A DNA stretch of 37,649 nt from a virus. Taxonomy: Duplodnaviria > Heunggongvirae > Uroviricota > Caudoviricetes. Shown here piece by piece: positions 2,965 through 14,553 of the stretch. The notes beneath the pieces were generated by a model. The model was not told the origin of the DNA. It saw only the letters and a program-made list of their open reading frames with translations, and ran no database searches. The DNA lies in IMG/VR virus record IMGVR_UViG_2579778631_000021, one strand, 5' to 3'. A program made the position numbers and the translations under genes. Every line of letters starts with the position of its first letter. The first letter of the stretch is position 1.

Positions 2965-3249
2965 TTATTCATTGCCGATATTCACTTTTATCGCGAACAC
3001 CTTTACCGGTTTATCACCGAAGTGCGGATGTGTGATTGTCTTGATTTCATATCCGTCATACGGGACGTCAATTCTTCGGCTGGAATCGTCGCGCTTCGGA
3101 TATCCCTTCGTGATAATCAGGCGGTCATACTCCCGGAACATAATTCGCTTATTCCAGTAGTCATTACACAGGCGATACTCTTCCGTTTTCTCTCCGCGAA
3201 TCATGGCATCGAAGTATTCACCTTTGACAGCAAGTTGCAGGTTAGCCAT
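2965..3249 (-). CDS. Hypothetical protein, possible ASCH/PUA-like domain
   Basis: Start ATG at 3249 (MANLQLAVKGEYFDAMIRGEKTEEYR) with GGAGG SD; G-x-K-x-x-E-x-R motif reminiscent of ASCH; family assignment is a guess. Confidence 0.4.
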   Translation of the reverse strand: MANLQLAVKGEYFDAMIRGEKTEEYRLCNDYWNKRIMFREYDRLIITKGYPKRDDSSRRIDVPYDGYEIKTITHPHFGDKPVKVFAIKVNIGNE

Positions 3250-3509
3250 TACCGCACCTCCAGTCTCCATACCGCCTGACCAATCCGGCTGGCATAGGTA
3301 TCTTTGGATACTGCTCCGTCTTTAGCCAGCTCCATAAGAATTTTGCGCAAATCTGCCGAACGCCATTCTTCATCAGGAAATTCCTTCTCCATTGCCAACC
3401 GCAGATTCCAGGTTGCTATCGTGAATGGATATTCCCCGCCGAGAGCTTTCTCTTGCAGGGCAGCACGGGAACGCATCACCTGCAAAACCTTCTCTTTTAC
3501 ATCCATCAT
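3249..3509 (-). CDS. Hypothetical phage protein (86 aa)
   Basis: Start MMDVKEKVLQ with GGAGG SD; start overlaps stop of upstream gene (ATGA). Confidence 0.4.
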   Translation of the reverse strand: MMDVKEKVLQVMRSRAALQEKALGGEYPFTIATWNLRLAMEKEFPDEEWRSADLRKILMELAKDGAVSKDTYASRIGQAVWRLEVR

Positions 3510-9168: not shown

Positions 9169-9750
9169 ATGAACAACTCATGGTGGCAGGAACTAATGCA
9201 TTTTTTCCTGCAAGGAATGACACTTAAACAGTTGATTCATATGCTAATCATCCTAATCATATTGATTATTGTTATGCCTGTAAGCGTAAAAGAATGGATA
9301 AACCTGCATAATCCAGAAATCCTTCCTCATTACTGGATGTATTACATCCTGTTGTTTTGCGTTAGCTATGTGCTTAACGGCGTTGTTAATTCCGCTTATC
9401 ACGCTGTGACTGAAAGAATTGAGATATTCGCTGCTCAGAAGCGCAAATCTAAAGAAGAGAAATACGTGCAAGATTTGTTTGATTCGTTAACTCTTGGAGA
9501 AAGAGCGTATTTGGCATTCGCTGTAGCCGCTAATAACCAGCTAAAGACAGAAAAGGGAAGCCCTGAAGCAATCTCATTGCTCGAAAAAGGGCTTCTTATT
9601 CGGGTACCTTCTGCTACTGGATATCCTGAAATCGACCGTTTTGTTATCCCGGAACGCTATAGAAATGAGTGCTACATTAGGTTTGCTGGGAAGAAAGACA
9701 GTCTTATGGATGAACTTATCGCTCAGGATAAGCATGGCAAAAACAAGTAA
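9169..9750 (+). CDS. SieB-like superinfection exclusion membrane protein
   Basis: 193-aa ORF on opposite strand to pL operon, AT-rich, N-terminal hydrophobic segments; position and size as for lambdoid sieB; recalled similarity only. Confidence 0.45.
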   Translation: MNNSWWQELMHFFLQGMTLKQLIHMLIILIILIIVMPVSVKEWINLHNPEILPHYWMYYILLFCVSYVLNGVVNSAYHAVTERIEIFAAQKRKSKEEKYVQDLFDSLTLGERAYLAFAVAANNQLKTEKGSPEAISLLEKGLLIRVPSATGYPEIDRFVIPERYRNECYIRFAGKKDSLMDELIAQDKHGKNK

Positions 9751-9766
9751 TTAGCAAATTAATTTA

Positions 9767-10039
9767 TCATCTCGCCGTCAGTTGTTTTGATTTCCGGTAG
9801 CCTGCCGCGTAAATGGCTACGTTTGGCAGGCAAATACTTCCACTGCATTCATCTGCCTTCTTGCAGCGAAGGCTTCCGAGTGATGCTGCTTTGTCTGCTC
9901 TGACGCAACCAGAGAGCTTTAGCGCAATTTTTCGCGCCAGTCGCTGTTCTTGCATTGCCTGCTCACGTTGAGCCTGTCTGCGTGCTCTGCGGCGATTTCT
10001 GGCGTTATCGTCAGCCAGATATGTAATGACTACTGCCAT
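9767..10039 (-). CDS. N-like transcription antiterminator
   Basis: First gene downstream of pL and nutL; arginine-rich motif NARNRRRARRQAQREQ near N-terminus; GGAGG SD. Confidence 0.6.
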   Translation of the reverse strand: MAVVITYLADDNARNRRRARRQAQREQAMQEQRLARKIALKLSGCVRADKAASLGSLRCKKADECSGSICLPNVAIYAAGYRKSKQLTAR

Positions 10040-10406: not shown

Positions 10407-10775
10407 TTAGTCAGCGAAGGTTAAGACGAGAATTACCTTAATGATGTCTGCTACAACAGACACGGCCATAGATAAACCAAAGACGATCCAAGCCATAGAG
10501 ATGTCTTCACTACCATCGTATAGAGTTCCGTAATCACTGGTGTAAGGCGTAAATGTCGCGCCTTGATACAATAGGTATAAGCTTGATCCATAGAGGATAA
10601 ATGCAGATATCCCTTGTATTGCCATGATCACCAGAATCATGAAACGAGCTGATCTATGCGCCCAAGCCTGGCTTATTTTTTCTGATAGAGATTTCGCAAT
10701 AAAAGCATGCGCTAAGCCGTAAATTGTTGAGATTGCCAACATCCCCAAAAAGCTTGCTATAGCGGTTCCAACCAT
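10407..10775 (-). CDS. Small polytopic membrane protein in rexAB position, co-transcribed with cI
   Basis: ATG at 10775 with AAGGGG SD (TTG at 10796 overlaps cI stop); about 122 aa with 3-4 hydrophobic helices; lies between cI and OL. Confidence 0.6.
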   Translation of the reverse strand: MVGTAIASFLGMLAISTIYGLAHAFIAKSLSEKISQAWAHRSARFMILVIMAIQGISAFILYGSSLYLLYQGATFTPYTSDYGTLYDGSEDISMAWIVFGLSMAVSVVADIIKVILVLTFAD

Positions 10776-10792
10776 AATCGCCCCTTGCGTGA

Positions 10793-11509
10793 TCAAACCA
10801 GCCTTAGTTTTGTCTCAATTGCAACGCCTATAATCTTGCAGTTTCCATTGATTGGCACGAGAGGCCATGCAGGATTAAGTCCCTTGAGGTATTTATTTCC
10901 GCCGTCGATTATCAGCTTCTTGAATGTTGCTTCGTTAGAGTCAGAAAGTTTTGCTATGACCAAGCTGCCGTTGATCGCCTCCCTTCCGGTATCGAAAAGA
11001 ACGAATGTTCCCTCTGGAATGCTTAACCCAACCGGTGCCGTCATTGAATCACCTTCCACTTTAAGCCAGAACGCATTACCTTGAATATGCGCGTCAGACT
11101 CAAGCCAAACATCTATGTCTTTAATGGTGTATGGTTCGCATGCTTCACACCACGAGCCAGCCTGGATACTGCTTAACACCGGATACCTCTTTCCTGCTCT
11201 GTATTCCCCTGCATACCTTACGTTGGCATCGCTCTTAAGGCTTTCTGCCTGTTCTGCAACCTTGGCAGCAATTGACTGGCTAAAATCAGCAATTGAGACT
11301 TGCAACAATCGTGCAAAACCAGATGCAACCTCAACGTTTAGCGCGTTTCTGCCATTAAGATAATGCCCTACCGCTCCTTGGGTGATACCCAGTTCATCAG
11401 CGATTGAGTATTGGGTTATTCCCAATTCTTTCTTTTTTGACTCATACAAAGCCTTAAGACGCTTAGCGTCTTCGAGCTGTTCTGTCGTCAGTGATTTTTT
11501 ATTTTCCAT
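10793..11509 (-). CDS. cI: CI repressor (HTH N-terminus, S24 LexA-like autocleavage C-terminus)
   Basis: 238 aa; N-terminus MENKKSLTTEQLEDAKRLKALYESKKKELGITQ resembles lambda cI; C-terminal GDSM and FKKL catalytic Ser/Lys motifs. Confidence 0.9.
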   Translation of the reverse strand: MENKKSLTTEQLEDAKRLKALYESKKKELGITQYSIADELGITQGAVGHYLNGRNALNVEVASGFARLLQVSIADFSQSIAAKVAEQAESLKSDANVRYAGEYRAGKRYPVLSSIQAGSWCEACEPYTIKDIDVWLESDAHIQGNAFWLKVEGDSMTAPVGLSIPEGTFVLFDTGREAINGSLVIAKLSDSNEATFKKLIIDGGNKYLKGLNPAWPLVPINGNCKIIGVAIETKLRLV

Positions 11510-11586: not shown

Positions 11587-11615
11587 TTGTTCATGGTTAA
11601 TAACGGAGAGTGCAT

Positions 11616-11810
11616 ATGATTCGAATGACACTTGCCGATTACGCCAAAATCCATGGACAGGCTAAAGCAGCCAGTGACTTTGGTGTAATCCAGTGCGCTA
11701 TCAGCAAGGCCATTCTGGCAGGCCGTAACATCATGGTTACGGTAAAGCCTGATGGCAGTGTGATTGGAGAGGAAGTTCGTCCTTTCCCAAGCAACAAGAA
11801 AAACAAATAG
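11616..11810 (+). CDS. cro: Cro repressor
   Basis: [62 protein letters not shown] strongly resembles lambda Cro; GGAGAG SD. Confidence 0.85.
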
Positions 11811-11816
11811 TAACAC

Positions 11817-11859
11817 CGCTCTTTAACAGTCATGGTCATCATTCCCGCCGAAATGCGGG
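11817..11859 (+). promoter_or_regulatory. nutR (boxA CGCTCTTTAACA + boxB CCCGC-CGAAAT-GCGGG), followed by tR1-like hairpin
   Basis: boxA 11817-11828, boxB 11844-11859; downstream hairpin GCGCAT-ACGTTG-ATGCGC then T-rich tract. Confidence 0.6.
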
Positions 11860-11918
11860 AATACAACGCGCATACGTTGATGCGCATAACTTCTTATTTG
11901 TTAAGGAAATACTTACAT

Positions 11919-12197
11919 ATGGAACTTACAAGTACTCGCAAGAAAGCGAATGCAATTACAAGCAACATCCTGAATCGAATTGCTGTACGTGGTCAGCGAA
12001 AGGTTGCTGATGCATTAGGGATCAATGAATCGCAAATTTCGCGATGGAAAGACAGCTTTATCCCAAAGATGGCCATGCTTCTGGCTGTACTGGAGTGGGG
12101 TGTTGAAGACGAGGAGTTGGCGGAACTGGCTAAGAAAGTAGCCAGAATGCTGACAAAAGAAAAAGCCCCGAAGAACGGCGAATTCTTCGAGGCCTGA
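11919..12197 (+). CDS. cII: CII transcriptional activator
   Basis: 92 aa; KSQISRWKDSFIPKMAMLLAVLEWGV motif nearly as in lambda CII. Confidence 0.85.
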   Translation: MELTSTRKKANAITSNILNRIAVRGQRKVADALGINESQISRWKDSFIPKMAMLLAVLEWGVEDEELAELAKKVARMLTKEKAPKNGEFFEA

Positions 12198-12231
12198 TGT
12201 AGAAAGACTGGATCAATCCACAGGAGTAATT

Positions 12232-12876
12232 ATGACATACGAAAATGACAAATTCCAGGTTCTGAAGAGCATGAAGGTGCCAGATGATTTTAAATCAAAT
12301 GGCTTTGTTTATGTGCTTTCGAATGAGTGCATGCCAGGAATTTATAAGATTGGGATGACTAAGCATTCACCAGAAGTTAGGGCTAAAGAAATTTCAGCCT
12401 CTACTGGCGTTCCTAAGCCATTTAAGGTGATAGCAGCCTTTCATTCAAATAATCCCGCATCAGATGAAAAACTCATTCATAAAGCCTTTGCAAAAGAGAG
12501 GCTTAGTGATAATCGAGAGTTTTTCAAGCTTGAAGATAATGATCTTTCTGAATCTCTAAATGAAATAAGGGCGCTGGTTGGCCCTGAAAGAAATGGCGAG
12601 ACGGCAGAATACGCAATTTACGACTCATTCATTTCTTTTCGCCATGAAAATGAGCTTGATCTTAATGAGGAGCTTATAGAGCAAGGTCTGGGTAGTGTAG
12701 TTGGTCATCTTCCTGCGGTGAAAAATTTCCTTATTCGCGCCGGAATTGCTTACGCGAAGCAACTGATAAGCAAATATAACTCATCGATAGTTATTAATAC
12801 AGATGGCAGTGTGGTGATGGTTAAGTCTCTTGAAGCCCAATGCTTTGATGCGGAGGTTGGAAATGAGCCTGGCTGA
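12232..12876 (+). CDS. T5orf172 (MUG113/GIY-YIG-like) domain protein, moron between cII and O
   Basis: N-terminal GFVYVLSNECMPGIYKIGMTKHSPEVRAKEISASTGVPKPFKV matches the T5orf172 signature; CAGGAG SD; AT-rich codon usage. Confidence 0.6.
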   Translation: MTYENDKFQVLKSMKVPDDFKSNGFVYVLSNECMPGIYKIGMTKHSPEVRAKEISASTGVPKPFKVIAAFHSNNPASDEKLIHKAFAKERLSDNREFFKLEDNDLSESLNEIRALVGPERNGETAEYAIYDSFISFRHENELDLNEELIEQGLGSVVGHLPAVKNFLIRAGIAYAKQLISKYNSSIVINTDGSVVMVKSLEAQCFDAEVGNEPG

Positions 12877-13705
12877 AGTATTTTACCTGCCGAAGAGTGA
12901 ACCTGTTGAACAGGAGCGAAGAGTGGCTGATATCGATGATGGTTACACCAGATTCGCTAACGAGCTGCTGGAAGCTATCGCAAGTGCCGATTTAACCGCT
13001 CGCCAGTTGAAAGTTATGCTGGCCTACGTCCGGAAAACATATGGATTCAATAAGAAAACAGATCGAATAGCCGATGAGCAAATTGCTCAGTTAACAGGAC
13101 TGTCAAGGCAGAATGTTAACAAGGCTAAAAAAGAACTGATTTCAATGAATTGCCTGTTTATGGATGGAAATCAAATCGGTGTAAACAGTGAGGTATCTGC
13201 GTGGCAATTCAGCAAGTGTCTCCAAGTTAGCAACTTTGTCTCGAAGTTAGAGACAAAAAATGTCTCCAAATTAGAGACACTCAATGTCTCGAAGTTAGAG
13301 ACACACAAAAGACATTCTTTAAAGACAAAAGAAAATATTAATAACCCCCCTATATCCCCCAAAAAAGTTTCTCAGAAGTTCGACCCGCTAGAAACAGAGT
13401 TGCCTGATTGGTTATCAGCAGAAACATGGTTGTCGTGGGTTACCTATCGCAAGGAGATAGGTAAGTCGATCAAGTCTAAGCAAAGTGTCACTCAGGCTAT
13501 CAACGTTCTAAGCAGAAGTCTGGAGAAGGGATATACACCTGAAGAAATTATAAACCAGAGCATCGCCAGTGGTTGGCAGGGGATTTTTGAGCCCAAGACT
13601 TCAAAGGGGAAATCTCAACCGAGGCCGCAGCATCGAGCTATGCAGGAAAACTTTGCCACCAAAGATTACGGACAAACTGAAATGCCTTCATGGGCGCAGG
13701 AGTGA
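12863..13705 (+). CDS. O: Replication initiator O-like protein (origin-binding)
   Basis: In-gene iteron array encoding repeated VSKLET; position after cII; GGAGG SD. Confidence 0.8.
   Translation: MSLAEVFYLPKSEPVEQERRVADIDDGYTRFANELLEAIASADLTARQLKVMLAYVRKTYGFNKKTDRIADEQIAQLTGLSRQNVNKAKKELISMNCLFMDGNQIGVNSEVSAWQFSKCLQVSNFVSKLETKNVSKLETLNVSKLETHKRHSLKTKENINNPPISPKKVSQKFDPLETELPDWLSAETWLSWVTYRKEIGKSIKSKQSVTQAINVLSRSLEKGYTPEEIINQSIASGWQGIFEPKTSKGKSQPRPQHRAMQENFATKDYGQTEMPSWAQE
13213..13303. repeat. Origin iterons: 4 copies of TGTCTC(G/C)AA(G/A)TTAGAGACA at 24-bp period, followed by AT-rich tract
   Basis: Repeats at 13217, 13237, 13261, 13285; each is itself an inverted repeat (TGTCTC...GAGACA). 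Confidence 0.75.
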
Positions 13706-13707
13706 AC

Positions 13708-14553
13708 ATGACGCTGGATGAAAAGATCTTCCAACTGGAGAAAAAACTTGCAGAATTGAGTTCTCCGCCAATTGCTATCGAGCATACAGCTGTAGAAATT
13801 GGCACTGGCATCTGTGAAAAACATGGTGAGTTTGAGCAGCGTAACCGTTACTCGACTGGGCCAATTAAGTTTGCCTCAAGACCTAGCGAATGCCCGGAAT
13901 GCATGAGAGATGAGCTTATTCGGCTACAGGCAGAGAAGATTAAAATCGACGAGGAATCACGTAAGCGCAATGTCGAGTTTCTGTTGAATAATCTTGATAT
14001 TCCTGAACGATTCAAGGGTTGCACACTACAGAACTACGAGCCAGTCAACGACGATGCAAAGAGAGTGCTCAGGGTGTGTCAGGCATACGCCAGCAAATGG
14101 CCTGAGAGGTTACAGAAAGGCGGTGGGCTGGTTATGTGTGGAAAGCCTGGTACTGGAAAGAATCATCTTGCACTGGCTATCGCCTGGCACGCAATTACGG
14201 AACATCAAAGCTCAGCTATTTTCACAACGGCGCTGAAAATTGCCAGAGAATATAAATCAACATGGTCGAAAAACTCCACCCGCACTGAGGATGAAGTGAT
14301 CCGACAGTTCACTAAACCTGACCTGCTAATTATCGATGAGGTTGGTGTGCAGTTTGGAAGCGAGGCGGAAAAGATGATCATGTTCGAAATCATCAACACC
14401 CGCTACGAGCGTATGAAGCCAACAATCCTGATTAGCAACCAGAGCAAAGATGAACTGTCTGCATTCATTGGTGAGCGTGTTATTGACAGGATGAATGATG
14501 GCGGCGGATGCACCCTTGCGTTTACATGGGATAGTTACAGGAGCAGATCGTGA
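13708..14553 (+). CDS. DnaC-like helicase loader (IstB/AAA+ ATPase)
   Basis: Walker A GKPGTGKNHLA, Walker B LLIIDEVG; start overlaps O stop. Confidence 0.8.
   Translation: MTLDEKIFQLEKKLAELSSPPIAIEHTAVEIGTGICEKHGEFEQRNRYSTGPIKFASRPSECPECMRDELIRLQAEKIKIDEESRKRNVEFLLNNLDIPERFKGCTLQNYEPVNDDAKRVLRVCQAYASKWPERLQKGGGLVMCGKPGTGKNHLALAIAWHAITEHQSSAIFTTALKIAREYKSTWSKNSTRTEDEVIRQFTKPDLLIIDEVGVQFGSEAEKMIMFEIINTRYERMKPTILISNQSKDELSAFIGERVIDRMNDGGGCTLAFTWDSYRSRS

Follow-up and report, generated by a model that had tools for sequence, protein, structure and literature searches.

A two-domain T5orf172 nuclease gene in the replication module of lambdoid phages: architecture, genomic setting and putative function

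T5orf172 nucleases and the cII-O locus

T5orf172 proteins form an established family of phage homing endonucleases that adjoin essential genes, and Zn-finger DNA-binding repeats are present in 87% of them (PMC10448857). The same domain is joined to RepA_N in Odn of phage ICP1, described as an anti-satellite, origin-directed nuclease (PMC8263062, as summarized in PMC10448857). In SNIPE (PD-lambda-1), contacts with protein and membrane, rather than sequence recognition, direct the nuclease to its target (10.1101/2025.11.03.685801). The settings reported so far thus comprise homing endonucleases, one anti-satellite enzyme (Odn) and one host defence (SNIPE), and the family described here would add a fourth, that of a conserved early-lytic nuclease in the replication module of temperate lambdoid phages. 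NixI was also considered as a T5orf172 nicking precedent and was discarded, as it is an HNH enzyme.

The window, i.e., the whole stretch of 37,649 nt analysed here, belongs to a P22/HK620-like (Lederbergvirus-type) phage or prophage of E. coli. A preliminary description of the sequence had reported a 214-aa ORF between cII and O, where lambda has no gene; the ORF is there, and lambda-type phages such as N7 indeed have nothing in its place. The features to which we refer are the following:

9169-9750, sieB
9767-10039, minus strand, N
10793-11509, minus strand, cI
11610-11810, cro
11919-12197, plus strand, cII, the upstream neighbour of the nuclease gene (Pfam Phage_CII, 2.5e-42)
12163-12195, minus strand, hairpin within the 3' end of cII (14-pair stem, then a T-run), which we take, from lambda, to be the oop-type antisense terminator
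12200-12237, plus strand, conserved cII-O joint with a Shine-Dalgarno sequence (SD; GGAG, 12223-12226) and ATGACA, common to the nuclease gene and the O of cassette-free phages
12232-12876, plus strand, two-domain nuclease gene, 214 aa, ATG to TGA (ORF list)
12301-12567, plus strand, N-terminal T5orf172/MUG113 (GIY-YIG) nuclease domain, residues 24-112
12568-12831, plus strand, acidic orphan C-terminal domain, residues 113 to ~200
12832-12876, plus strand, acidic low-confidence tail of the nuclease (pLDDT drops to 72, then 45)
12238-12907, plus strand, 670-nt block in place of 42 nt of the O 5' end of cassette-free phages (BLAST breakpoints 12237/12908)
12863-13705, plus strand, replication initiator O with the alternative 15-residue N-terminus MSLAEVFYLPKSEPV (Pfam Phage_rep_O, 3.6e-36)
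13214-13308, four iterons inside O, spaced 20-24 nt (repeat search, families D1 and D2), presumably the replication origin, as in lambda-type O/ori
13690-14553, plus strand, DnaC/IstB-like helicase loader (Pfam IstB_IS21, 1.8e-18; Bac_DnaA, 9.9e-09)

NinB and Dam methylase genes come after the loader.

As in the T5orf172 homing endonucleases of ICP1, T5-like and other phages, the Pfam domain lies at one terminus of a small protein, and the gene is intergenic, next to an essential gene and sporadically distributed (PMC10448857). Those enzymes, however, carry CapR, DUF723 or DUF4397 Zn-finger repeats where the present family has an acidic orphan domain, and often have the nuclease domain at the opposite end, whereas it is N-terminal here. 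They are also scattered over many genome sites, whereas this family holds a single fixed slot, under strong purifying selection and without the signature of a sweep. As far as Odn is described in the summary cited above, the likeness would be that of a domesticated T5orf172 nuclease serving the phage, with a conceptual tie to replication origins; Odn borrows an initiator DNA-binding domain, whereas the C-terminal domain here is acidic and showed no homology to such a domain and no likeness to any neighbouring initiator. SNIPE has a related nuclease core (PADLOC, 8.6e-12) but is a host membrane protein of ~490 aa, with an N-terminal TM segment, DUF4041 and a C-terminal nuclease, that acts in constitutive defence, whereas the protein studied here is soluble, phage-encoded, 214 aa long and probably early-lytic; of the SNIPE profile, positions 355-449 of 496 alone are matched. 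The closest nuclease core is that of PDC-S57 (6.4e-29 for the window protein in PADLOC, E about 1e-25 to 1e-29 across the family), a computational candidate only, of similar length (212-245 profile positions), of which no mention was found in the literature searched. The window protein matches its positions 3-93 of 212 and not its full length; the match ends at the nuclease domain in nine of ten relatives, P0040 alone reaching position 170. HK620 hkaW, HK022 gp53 and DUF2740 share the cII-O slot and the same 38-nt joint with O's SD, although they are unrelated 48-aa proteins of unknown function.

A GIY-YIG domain joined to an acidic orphan domain

Residues 25-64 of the protein carry the signature FVYVLSNECMPGIYKIGMTKHSPEVRAKEISASTGVPKPF, and Pfam profiles match T5orf172 (PF10544; 2.3e-15, 57.4 bits against a cut-off of 20, residues 24-112) as well as MUG113 (PF13455; 4.3e-16, 59.7 bits against 22.3, residues 38-111). 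In a Foldseek search against viral models, T5orf172 cores of ~95 residues were the sole matches. These searches bear out the T5orf172/GIY-YIG assignment of the preliminary description, which had placed the domain in the N-terminal 75 aa; it is present there but spans about 90 residues (24-112), and the remainder, held to be some 130 unassigned residues, is indeed without a Pfam, PDB or fold match, albeit shorter (about 100 residues). Both domains are present, according to precomputed domain assignments, in all 35 relatives that we aligned (33-83% identity). Invariant across the 35 sequences are Y27 (in VYV), Y38-K-I-G41, R50, E53, H83, R95-E96 and F97, which in motif order read as the putative Tyr-Tyr-Arg-His-Glu set of GIY-YIG enzymes; judged by that order rather than by residue-level superposition, they would be equivalent to Y6, Y17, R27 and E75 of I-TevI. 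An AlphaFold2 model built on this alignment has a mean pLDDT of 86.2, and the nuclease domain is predicted to adopt the alpha/beta core fold of GIY-YIG proteins.

Bas106_0049, a 'hypothetical protein', is 99.1% identical to the window protein. RefSeq already calls the latter 'GIY-YIG nuclease family protein', the PHROGs that it matches (phrog_8430 and phrog_16524) have no functional annotation attached, and no description of the gene was found in the literature searched. On present evidence, this accessory gene is unstudied, and standard annotation already identifies its domain. Its composition is distinct from that of its flanks, GC and GC3 being 0.406 and 0.353 for the nuclease gene, 0.470 and 0.484 for cII, and 0.437 and 0.466 for O (whole-window GC 0.479; GC3 of the flanks about 0.47-0.50); the loader likewise exceeds the nuclease gene in both. 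This confirms the AT-rich codon usage noted earlier. The few differences among the E. coli copies are mostly non-synonymous, although the numbers are small; residue 173 (12748-12750), for example, is Ala in the window copy and Asp in L001, L052-L056 and the representative of the P0001 cluster.

From residue 113 to ~200, the model contains a well-predicted second domain, arranged as helix-strand-helix-long helix-two strands-helix. Neither Pfam, RepA_N included, nor PDB sequence or fold searches gave a match to it. When its profile was run against 1.84 billion representative proteins, only 14 matches were obtained, all of them proteins of equal size and architecture or fragments thereof. Throughout the family the domain is acidic (net charge -2 to -11, pI 4.1-5.9) and lacks conserved cysteines, and neither a Zn finger nor an HTH was found in it. 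Against 32 neighbouring proteins, including 13 initiators, the profile scored at most 3 bits, and no likeness to initiators or cII was seen. By Pfam, PDB, fold and charge, then, no DNA-binding or specificity module of the kind joined to homing endonucleases was found; the domain appears to be an orphan tied to a single architecture, unlike the DNA-reading module of such an enzyme. Taken together, the sequence evidence describes a T5orf172 enzyme with a previously undescribed orphan acidic domain, a fixed operon position and a putative function.

The tails of the relatives differ from that of the window protein. Proteins of a sister clade (~230 aa; tails read in L009-L012, L099, L102, L118, P0031, P0035, P0039 and P0040) end in GIYGP...(D/E)xP(I/L/V)PF; the closing motifs DDSDIPF, DDTDIPF, DFDDAPF, EPIPF and EPLPF resemble the C-terminus of SSB. 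The tip of E. coli SSB is DDDIPF, and the DDSDIPF and DDTDIPF tails of several members match it, which suggests that these proteins may dock on SSB-interacting proteins. The window protein has no such tail, because its last codons double as the ribosome-binding site of O. A P(I/L)PF tail occurs in 7/7 copies upstream of HTH_36-type initiators, and most copies upstream of 'MARSRN' initiators end in GIYGPxxPVEF/Y, so that the tail type tracks the downstream initiator and the body of the C-terminal domain does not. This tracking could be functional, or it could be mere linkage, given that the tail codons abut the initiator's ribosome-binding site. Co-variation of the domain body with initiator type was looked for and not found, so that nothing in it points to any one replication protein as a specific partner.

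Junctions, genomic position and history of the gene

Phage N7, which has matching cII and O genes and no nuclease gene, defines the ends of the cassette: in BLAST, window 11818-12237 corresponds to N7 3001-3420, and homology resumes at window 12908 with N7 3463. The joint is identical to that of N7 through ATGACA save for one base of the SD-ATG spacer (GGAGTAATT versus GGAGTCATT). Because the left breakpoint falls directly after O's ATGACA, the nuclease gene uses the SD and the first two codons of O. The gene had been credited with its own SD; GGAG (12223-12226) does lie 5 nt ahead of the ATG, but this SD and ATGACA are those of O. On the right side, the block takes the place of 42 nt at the 5' end of the N7/lambda-type O (the N7-type end reads ATGACAAATACAGC...TTTGCC), and the O of the window starts at an ATG at 12863 within the 3' end of the nuclease gene, in another frame and preceded by GGAGG (12852-12856), so that the two genes overlap by 14 nt. 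Empty sites at the same junction (12237/12908) are found in N7, mEpX1 and four E. coli prophages (L057-L060), i.e., presence and absence alternate at one site between otherwise homologous genomes, as is typical of homing genes. In three cassette-bearing prophages, homology to the window begins at 12207.

No sigma-70-like promoter upstream of the gene and no plus-strand terminator downstream of it were detected by consensus scans, which are weak evidence. Since the gene borrows the SD and start codon of O and runs 14 nt into O itself, transcription from pR is expected only in lytic growth, with silence in the lysogen. Judged from position alone, the gene should be part of the delayed-early pR transcript, a status with which the term 'moron', used in the preliminary description, does not fit.

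The slot is conserved well beyond E. coli. Of 63 full-length relatives from phages and prophages of Enterobacterales, 61 lie directly upstream of a replication initiator, nearly all after cII or YdaT, and the initiators are of at least five unrelated kinds. In 11 genomes covering Pantoea, Enterobacter, Mixta, Lonsdalea, Tatumella, Dryocola, Providencia and Morganella, the homologue follows a cII-like or YdaT gene and abuts or overlaps the initiator, and the arrangement matches in Salmonella phage S137 and in three Logan contigs with the closest non-identical relatives. Among 52 full-length members on IMG/VR contigs, the upstream gene is cII-like in 38 and YdaT in nine, and an initiator is immediately downstream in 50; these comprise 25 of the 'MARSRNIKPGFF' type, which has no Pfam match, 20 Phage_rep_O, three HTH_36 and two of a 317-aa type paired with lambda-P, and the initiator of S137, annotated 'primosomal protein I', is of a fifth kind. 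Unrelated replication modules are thus exchanged behind a nuclease gene that stays in its slot, although the fixed position may be mere conservation of lambdoid gene order. As the downstream initiators are of at least five kinds and the upstream genes of two families, the flanks offer no conserved target that could anchor a site-specific homing lineage, and no target gene conserved across the family was found at its flanks.

The commonest partner initiator (~270-295 aa) starts MARSRNIKPGFFTNDELAEC, has no Pfam or NCBIfam match, and is followed by a lambda-P-like or DnaC-like loader; it was seen in L007, L008, L013-L015 and 25 IMG/VR loci, and these proteins form an uncharacterized replication initiator family. 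One ENA metagenome protein (P0034, 202 aa), in which Phage_rep_O is combined with 98% identity to the C-terminal end of the nuclease, looked like a natural fusion; it was rejected, as the last 66 nuclease residues are joined to O by read-through of the 14-nt overlap after a frameshift, which most likely stems from an error in sequencing or assembly. The sole candidate for a degraded copy is that of an IMG/VR contig (L112, 2890-3543), with 217 aa in an otherwise 247-aa subgroup, ending in FHETKPSE and lying 85 nt from the initiator, without overlap.

The 38-nt joint (12200-12237) occurs in about 460 of 5,426 E. coli genomes, ahead of O, of DUF2740/hkaW-like 48-aa ORFs or of hypotheticals. The stretch looks like a recombination joint that these loci have in common and an accessory-gene hot spot. 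In phage S137, an hkaW-like ORF and a T5orf172 gene stand in tandem at the cII-O slot, and in Tatumella morbirosei (L012, 3147-3974) a 275-aa ParB-like protein (HTH_ParB, 1.1e-05) is encoded between cII and the nuclease gene.

The age of the association is indicated by L061, whose nuclease is 83% identical in amino acid sequence. From the end of cII to the end of O, nuclease gene included, this locus and the window are collinear (84% nt identity), and the O of L061 starts MSLAEVYYLQKNEPV, so that the two share the unusual O N-terminus. The collinearity of nuclease and O (MSLAEV) indicates that the pair is old and predates the E. coli copies. The earlier view that the gene was inserted holds insofar as empty sites exist, as in N7, but it is too simple in the face of a collinear nuclease-plus-O unit; the empty site may itself be the derived state, produced by recombination with a lambda-type O 5' end. 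Comparison of the window with L061 by the Nei-Gojobori method gave the following values:

Nuclease, whole: dN/dS 0.087 (dS 1.03)
Nuclease, N-terminal domain: dN/dS 0.098
Nuclease, C-terminal domain: dN/dS 0.076
O: dN/dS 0.131
Helicase loader: dN/dS 0.088

Purifying selection is strong, and both domains of the nuclease are as constrained as the essential neighbours. The preliminary description had opposed its own reading to that of a conserved replication accessory factor; the gene partly behaves as such a factor, being locked to initiators and strongly selected, with a replication role that is putative. We contend that 'conserved replication-module gene' suits it better than 'inserted moron'.

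Of 5,426 complete E. coli genomes, only 19 carry the gene, always full-length and with at least 99% nt identity, and sensitive blastn revealed no partial or decayed copies among the 5,426. The accompanying O allele is found in 46 genomes, 41% of which have the gene; its absence from the other 27 shows that it is dispensable for that allele. Five sampled carriers represent four immunity regions and three cII alleles, always with the O allele of the window. In four non-carriers (L057-L060), cII is followed directly by an 846-nt O, and one of these, L059, has Cro and CII proteins identical to those of a carrier, L054. In a diversity set combining the E. coli and IMG/VR copies (18 distinct haplotypes), pi was 0.0066 for the nuclease gene; for O it was 0.0089 in these carriers and 0.0124 in non-carriers, with a dxy of 0.0109 between the two groups, close to pi. 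Polymorphic sites in O do not sort by cassette status, i.e., there was no co-conversion, haplotype linkage or cassette-linked SNP, and all 23 nuclease copies examined base by base are intact. None of the marks of recent spread (diversity below that of the flanks, a co-conversion tract, decayed copies) was observed in these samples; as the diversity of the cassette is about that of its flanks and O is undifferentiated between carriers and non-carriers, there is no signature of a sweep or of co-conversion. The cassette is an old, freely recombining presence/absence polymorphism and not a recent invasion.

Two carriers deserve mention. In E. coli B1_2 (L055, 5105-6318), an IS3 element just after O truncates the helicase-loader gene and a portal gene fragment follows, i.e., the prophage is defective, and its nuclease gene is still intact. 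In E. coli ET776 (NZ_CP100909.1), two places match the nuclease gene, and this strain may carry two cassette-bearing prophages.

Readings of the function and further observations

The reading that we favour, tentatively and with a probability of roughly 0.4, is that of an accessory endonuclease of the replication module that acts early in lytic growth, benefits the phage and is guided by protein contacts. The protein would be an active GIY-YIG (T5orf172-type) DNA endonuclease and a long-standing accessory member of the replication module in a subset of lambdoid phages. A pR transcript would join it with cII, O and the helicase loader; it would be translated from the original ribosome-binding site of O, and O by coupling, from the site inside the nuclease 3' end. 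With this mode of transcription and translation, the nuclease would be made only after infection or induction, as the phage replisome assembles. Since the second domain is acidic and without DNA-reading features, targeting would most likely proceed through protein contacts, as for the T5orf172 nuclease of SNIPE/PD-lambda-1, and the SSB-tail-like C-terminus of the sister clade would suggest a link with the host proteins that interact with SSB at replication forks. As substrate, the most likely candidates would be non-phage DNA (the host chromosome, co-resident rival prophages or satellites) or replication intermediates, to the benefit of the phage. Several observations speak against this reading, however: the window protein has no SSB-like tail, the C-terminal domain does not co-vary with initiator type, the conserved position could reflect lambdoid synteny alone, and 27 of 46 genomes with the O allele do without the gene. 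Furthermore, a soluble, unspecific nuclease would threaten the unmodified phage genome, for which no self-protection mechanism is evident, and the acidic domain could be an autoinhibitory or dimerization module. It can be speculated in more detail that the family is a so far unrecognized type of weapon of the replication module, in which a soluble GIY-YIG nuclease is docked by its acidic domain (in the sister clade also by a mimic of the SSB C-terminus) on the host SSB hub or replisome and cuts host or rival forks as the initiator fires, diverting resources to the phage in a protein-guided rather than sequence-guided manner; this particular scenario we consider quite improbable.

The protein could, on the other hand, be a free-standing homing endonuclease that, in mixed infection or on induction, cuts the cassette-free cII-O junction or the O 5' end of related phages, whereupon repair copies the 670-nt block into the genome that was cut; the carrier would be safe from self-cleavage through the altered first 15 codons of its O. 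This reading is best supported by the clean polymorphism and by the precedent within the family: T5orf172 proteins are an established phage homing family beside essential genes (PMC10448857), and presence and absence alternate at identical junctions, sometimes in near-isogenic pairs such as L054 and L059 with their identical Cro and CII. The block moreover replaces 42 nt of O, by which a target spanning the joint would be destroyed, copies at least 99% identical are combined with no fewer than four immunity types and three cII alleles, the cassette is present in 41% of O-allele carriers, and its GC is below that of the flanks. We nevertheless regard this as unlikely, in view of an acidic C-terminal domain with neither Zn finger nor HTH as DNA-binding module, a position kept without a conserved target, whichever of two gene families lies upstream and whichever of at least five unrelated kinds of initiator lies downstream, a dN/dS of 0.087 over a dS of about 1 in a gene that co-diverged with O, the lack of degraded copies in E. 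coli, and a pi of 0.0066 (flanks 0.0089, O dxy 0.0109) that carries no sweep or co-conversion signature. Early expression with the replication genes, as expected from position, a patchy accessory distribution, strong selection, and an acidic domain that, with the sister-clade tails, would suit competition for SSB-binding pockets would all agree with counter-defence, in which phage replication is protected because some component of host immunity, such as a sensor or effector based on DNA, or a nuclease or helicase that interacts with SSB, is destroyed or decoyed by the nuclease or by its acidic, SSB-tail-like C-terminal part. This too is rather doubtful, given that no similarity to known anti-defence proteins was found in searches that ran without dedicated anti-defence libraries, that the invariant catalytic residues would be needless for a pure decoy, and that the window protein has no SSB-like tail. 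Structure-specific, SLX1-like nicking of the phage's own replication intermediates, for the switch from theta to rolling-circle replication or for the resolution of branched DNA, seems to us very unlikely. We consider least credible of all that the gene is a defence or superinfection-exclusion moron, expressed in the lysogen and cutting incoming phage DNA in the manner of SNIPE/PD-lambda-1 or PDC-S57. The PADLOC matches (PDC-S57, 6.4e-29; PD-Lambda-1, 8.6e-12), a size similar to that of PDC-S57 and the GC below the flanks are in its favour, but the matches are restricted to the nuclease core (positions 3-93 of 212 and 355-449 of 496), the protein has no TM segment and no DUF4041, and no promoter was found. 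The gene also lies downstream of cro and cII in the pR operon, which the repressor silences in the lysogen, whereas the genes of the window expected to be expressed in the lysogen (sieB, 9169-9750, and the ORF downstream of cI) sit elsewhere.

The members form a well-defined family under strong selection that can be tested directly in a cultured phage. The K-12-infecting BASEL phage Bas106 carries the gene, and cassette-free counterparts such as N7 occur naturally, so that the question can be answered by simple genetics. An attack on host or rival DNA would make the protein relevant to prophage competition in polylysogens; homing would make it a T5orf172 homing enzyme without a recognizable DNA-binding domain. 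The second domain of the family has no known relatives.

Two minor features of the early region concern the minus strand. A 129-aa hydrophobic ORF (10407-10796) directly downstream of cI overlaps the cI stop, has no Pfam match and occupies the same place as hkaS in HK620; it is likely a lysogen-expressed accessory gene, unlike the nuclease gene. At 12163-12260, in what we presume, by analogy with lambda, to be the pO/oop unit, both the terminator hairpin (12195 to 12163) and the -10 element CATAAT, which overlaps the start codon and is complementary to ATTATG, are intact, while the position of the lambda pO -35 element is now taken by nuclease codons with the poor match TGGAAT, and antisense control of cII may thus differ between phages with and without the cassette.
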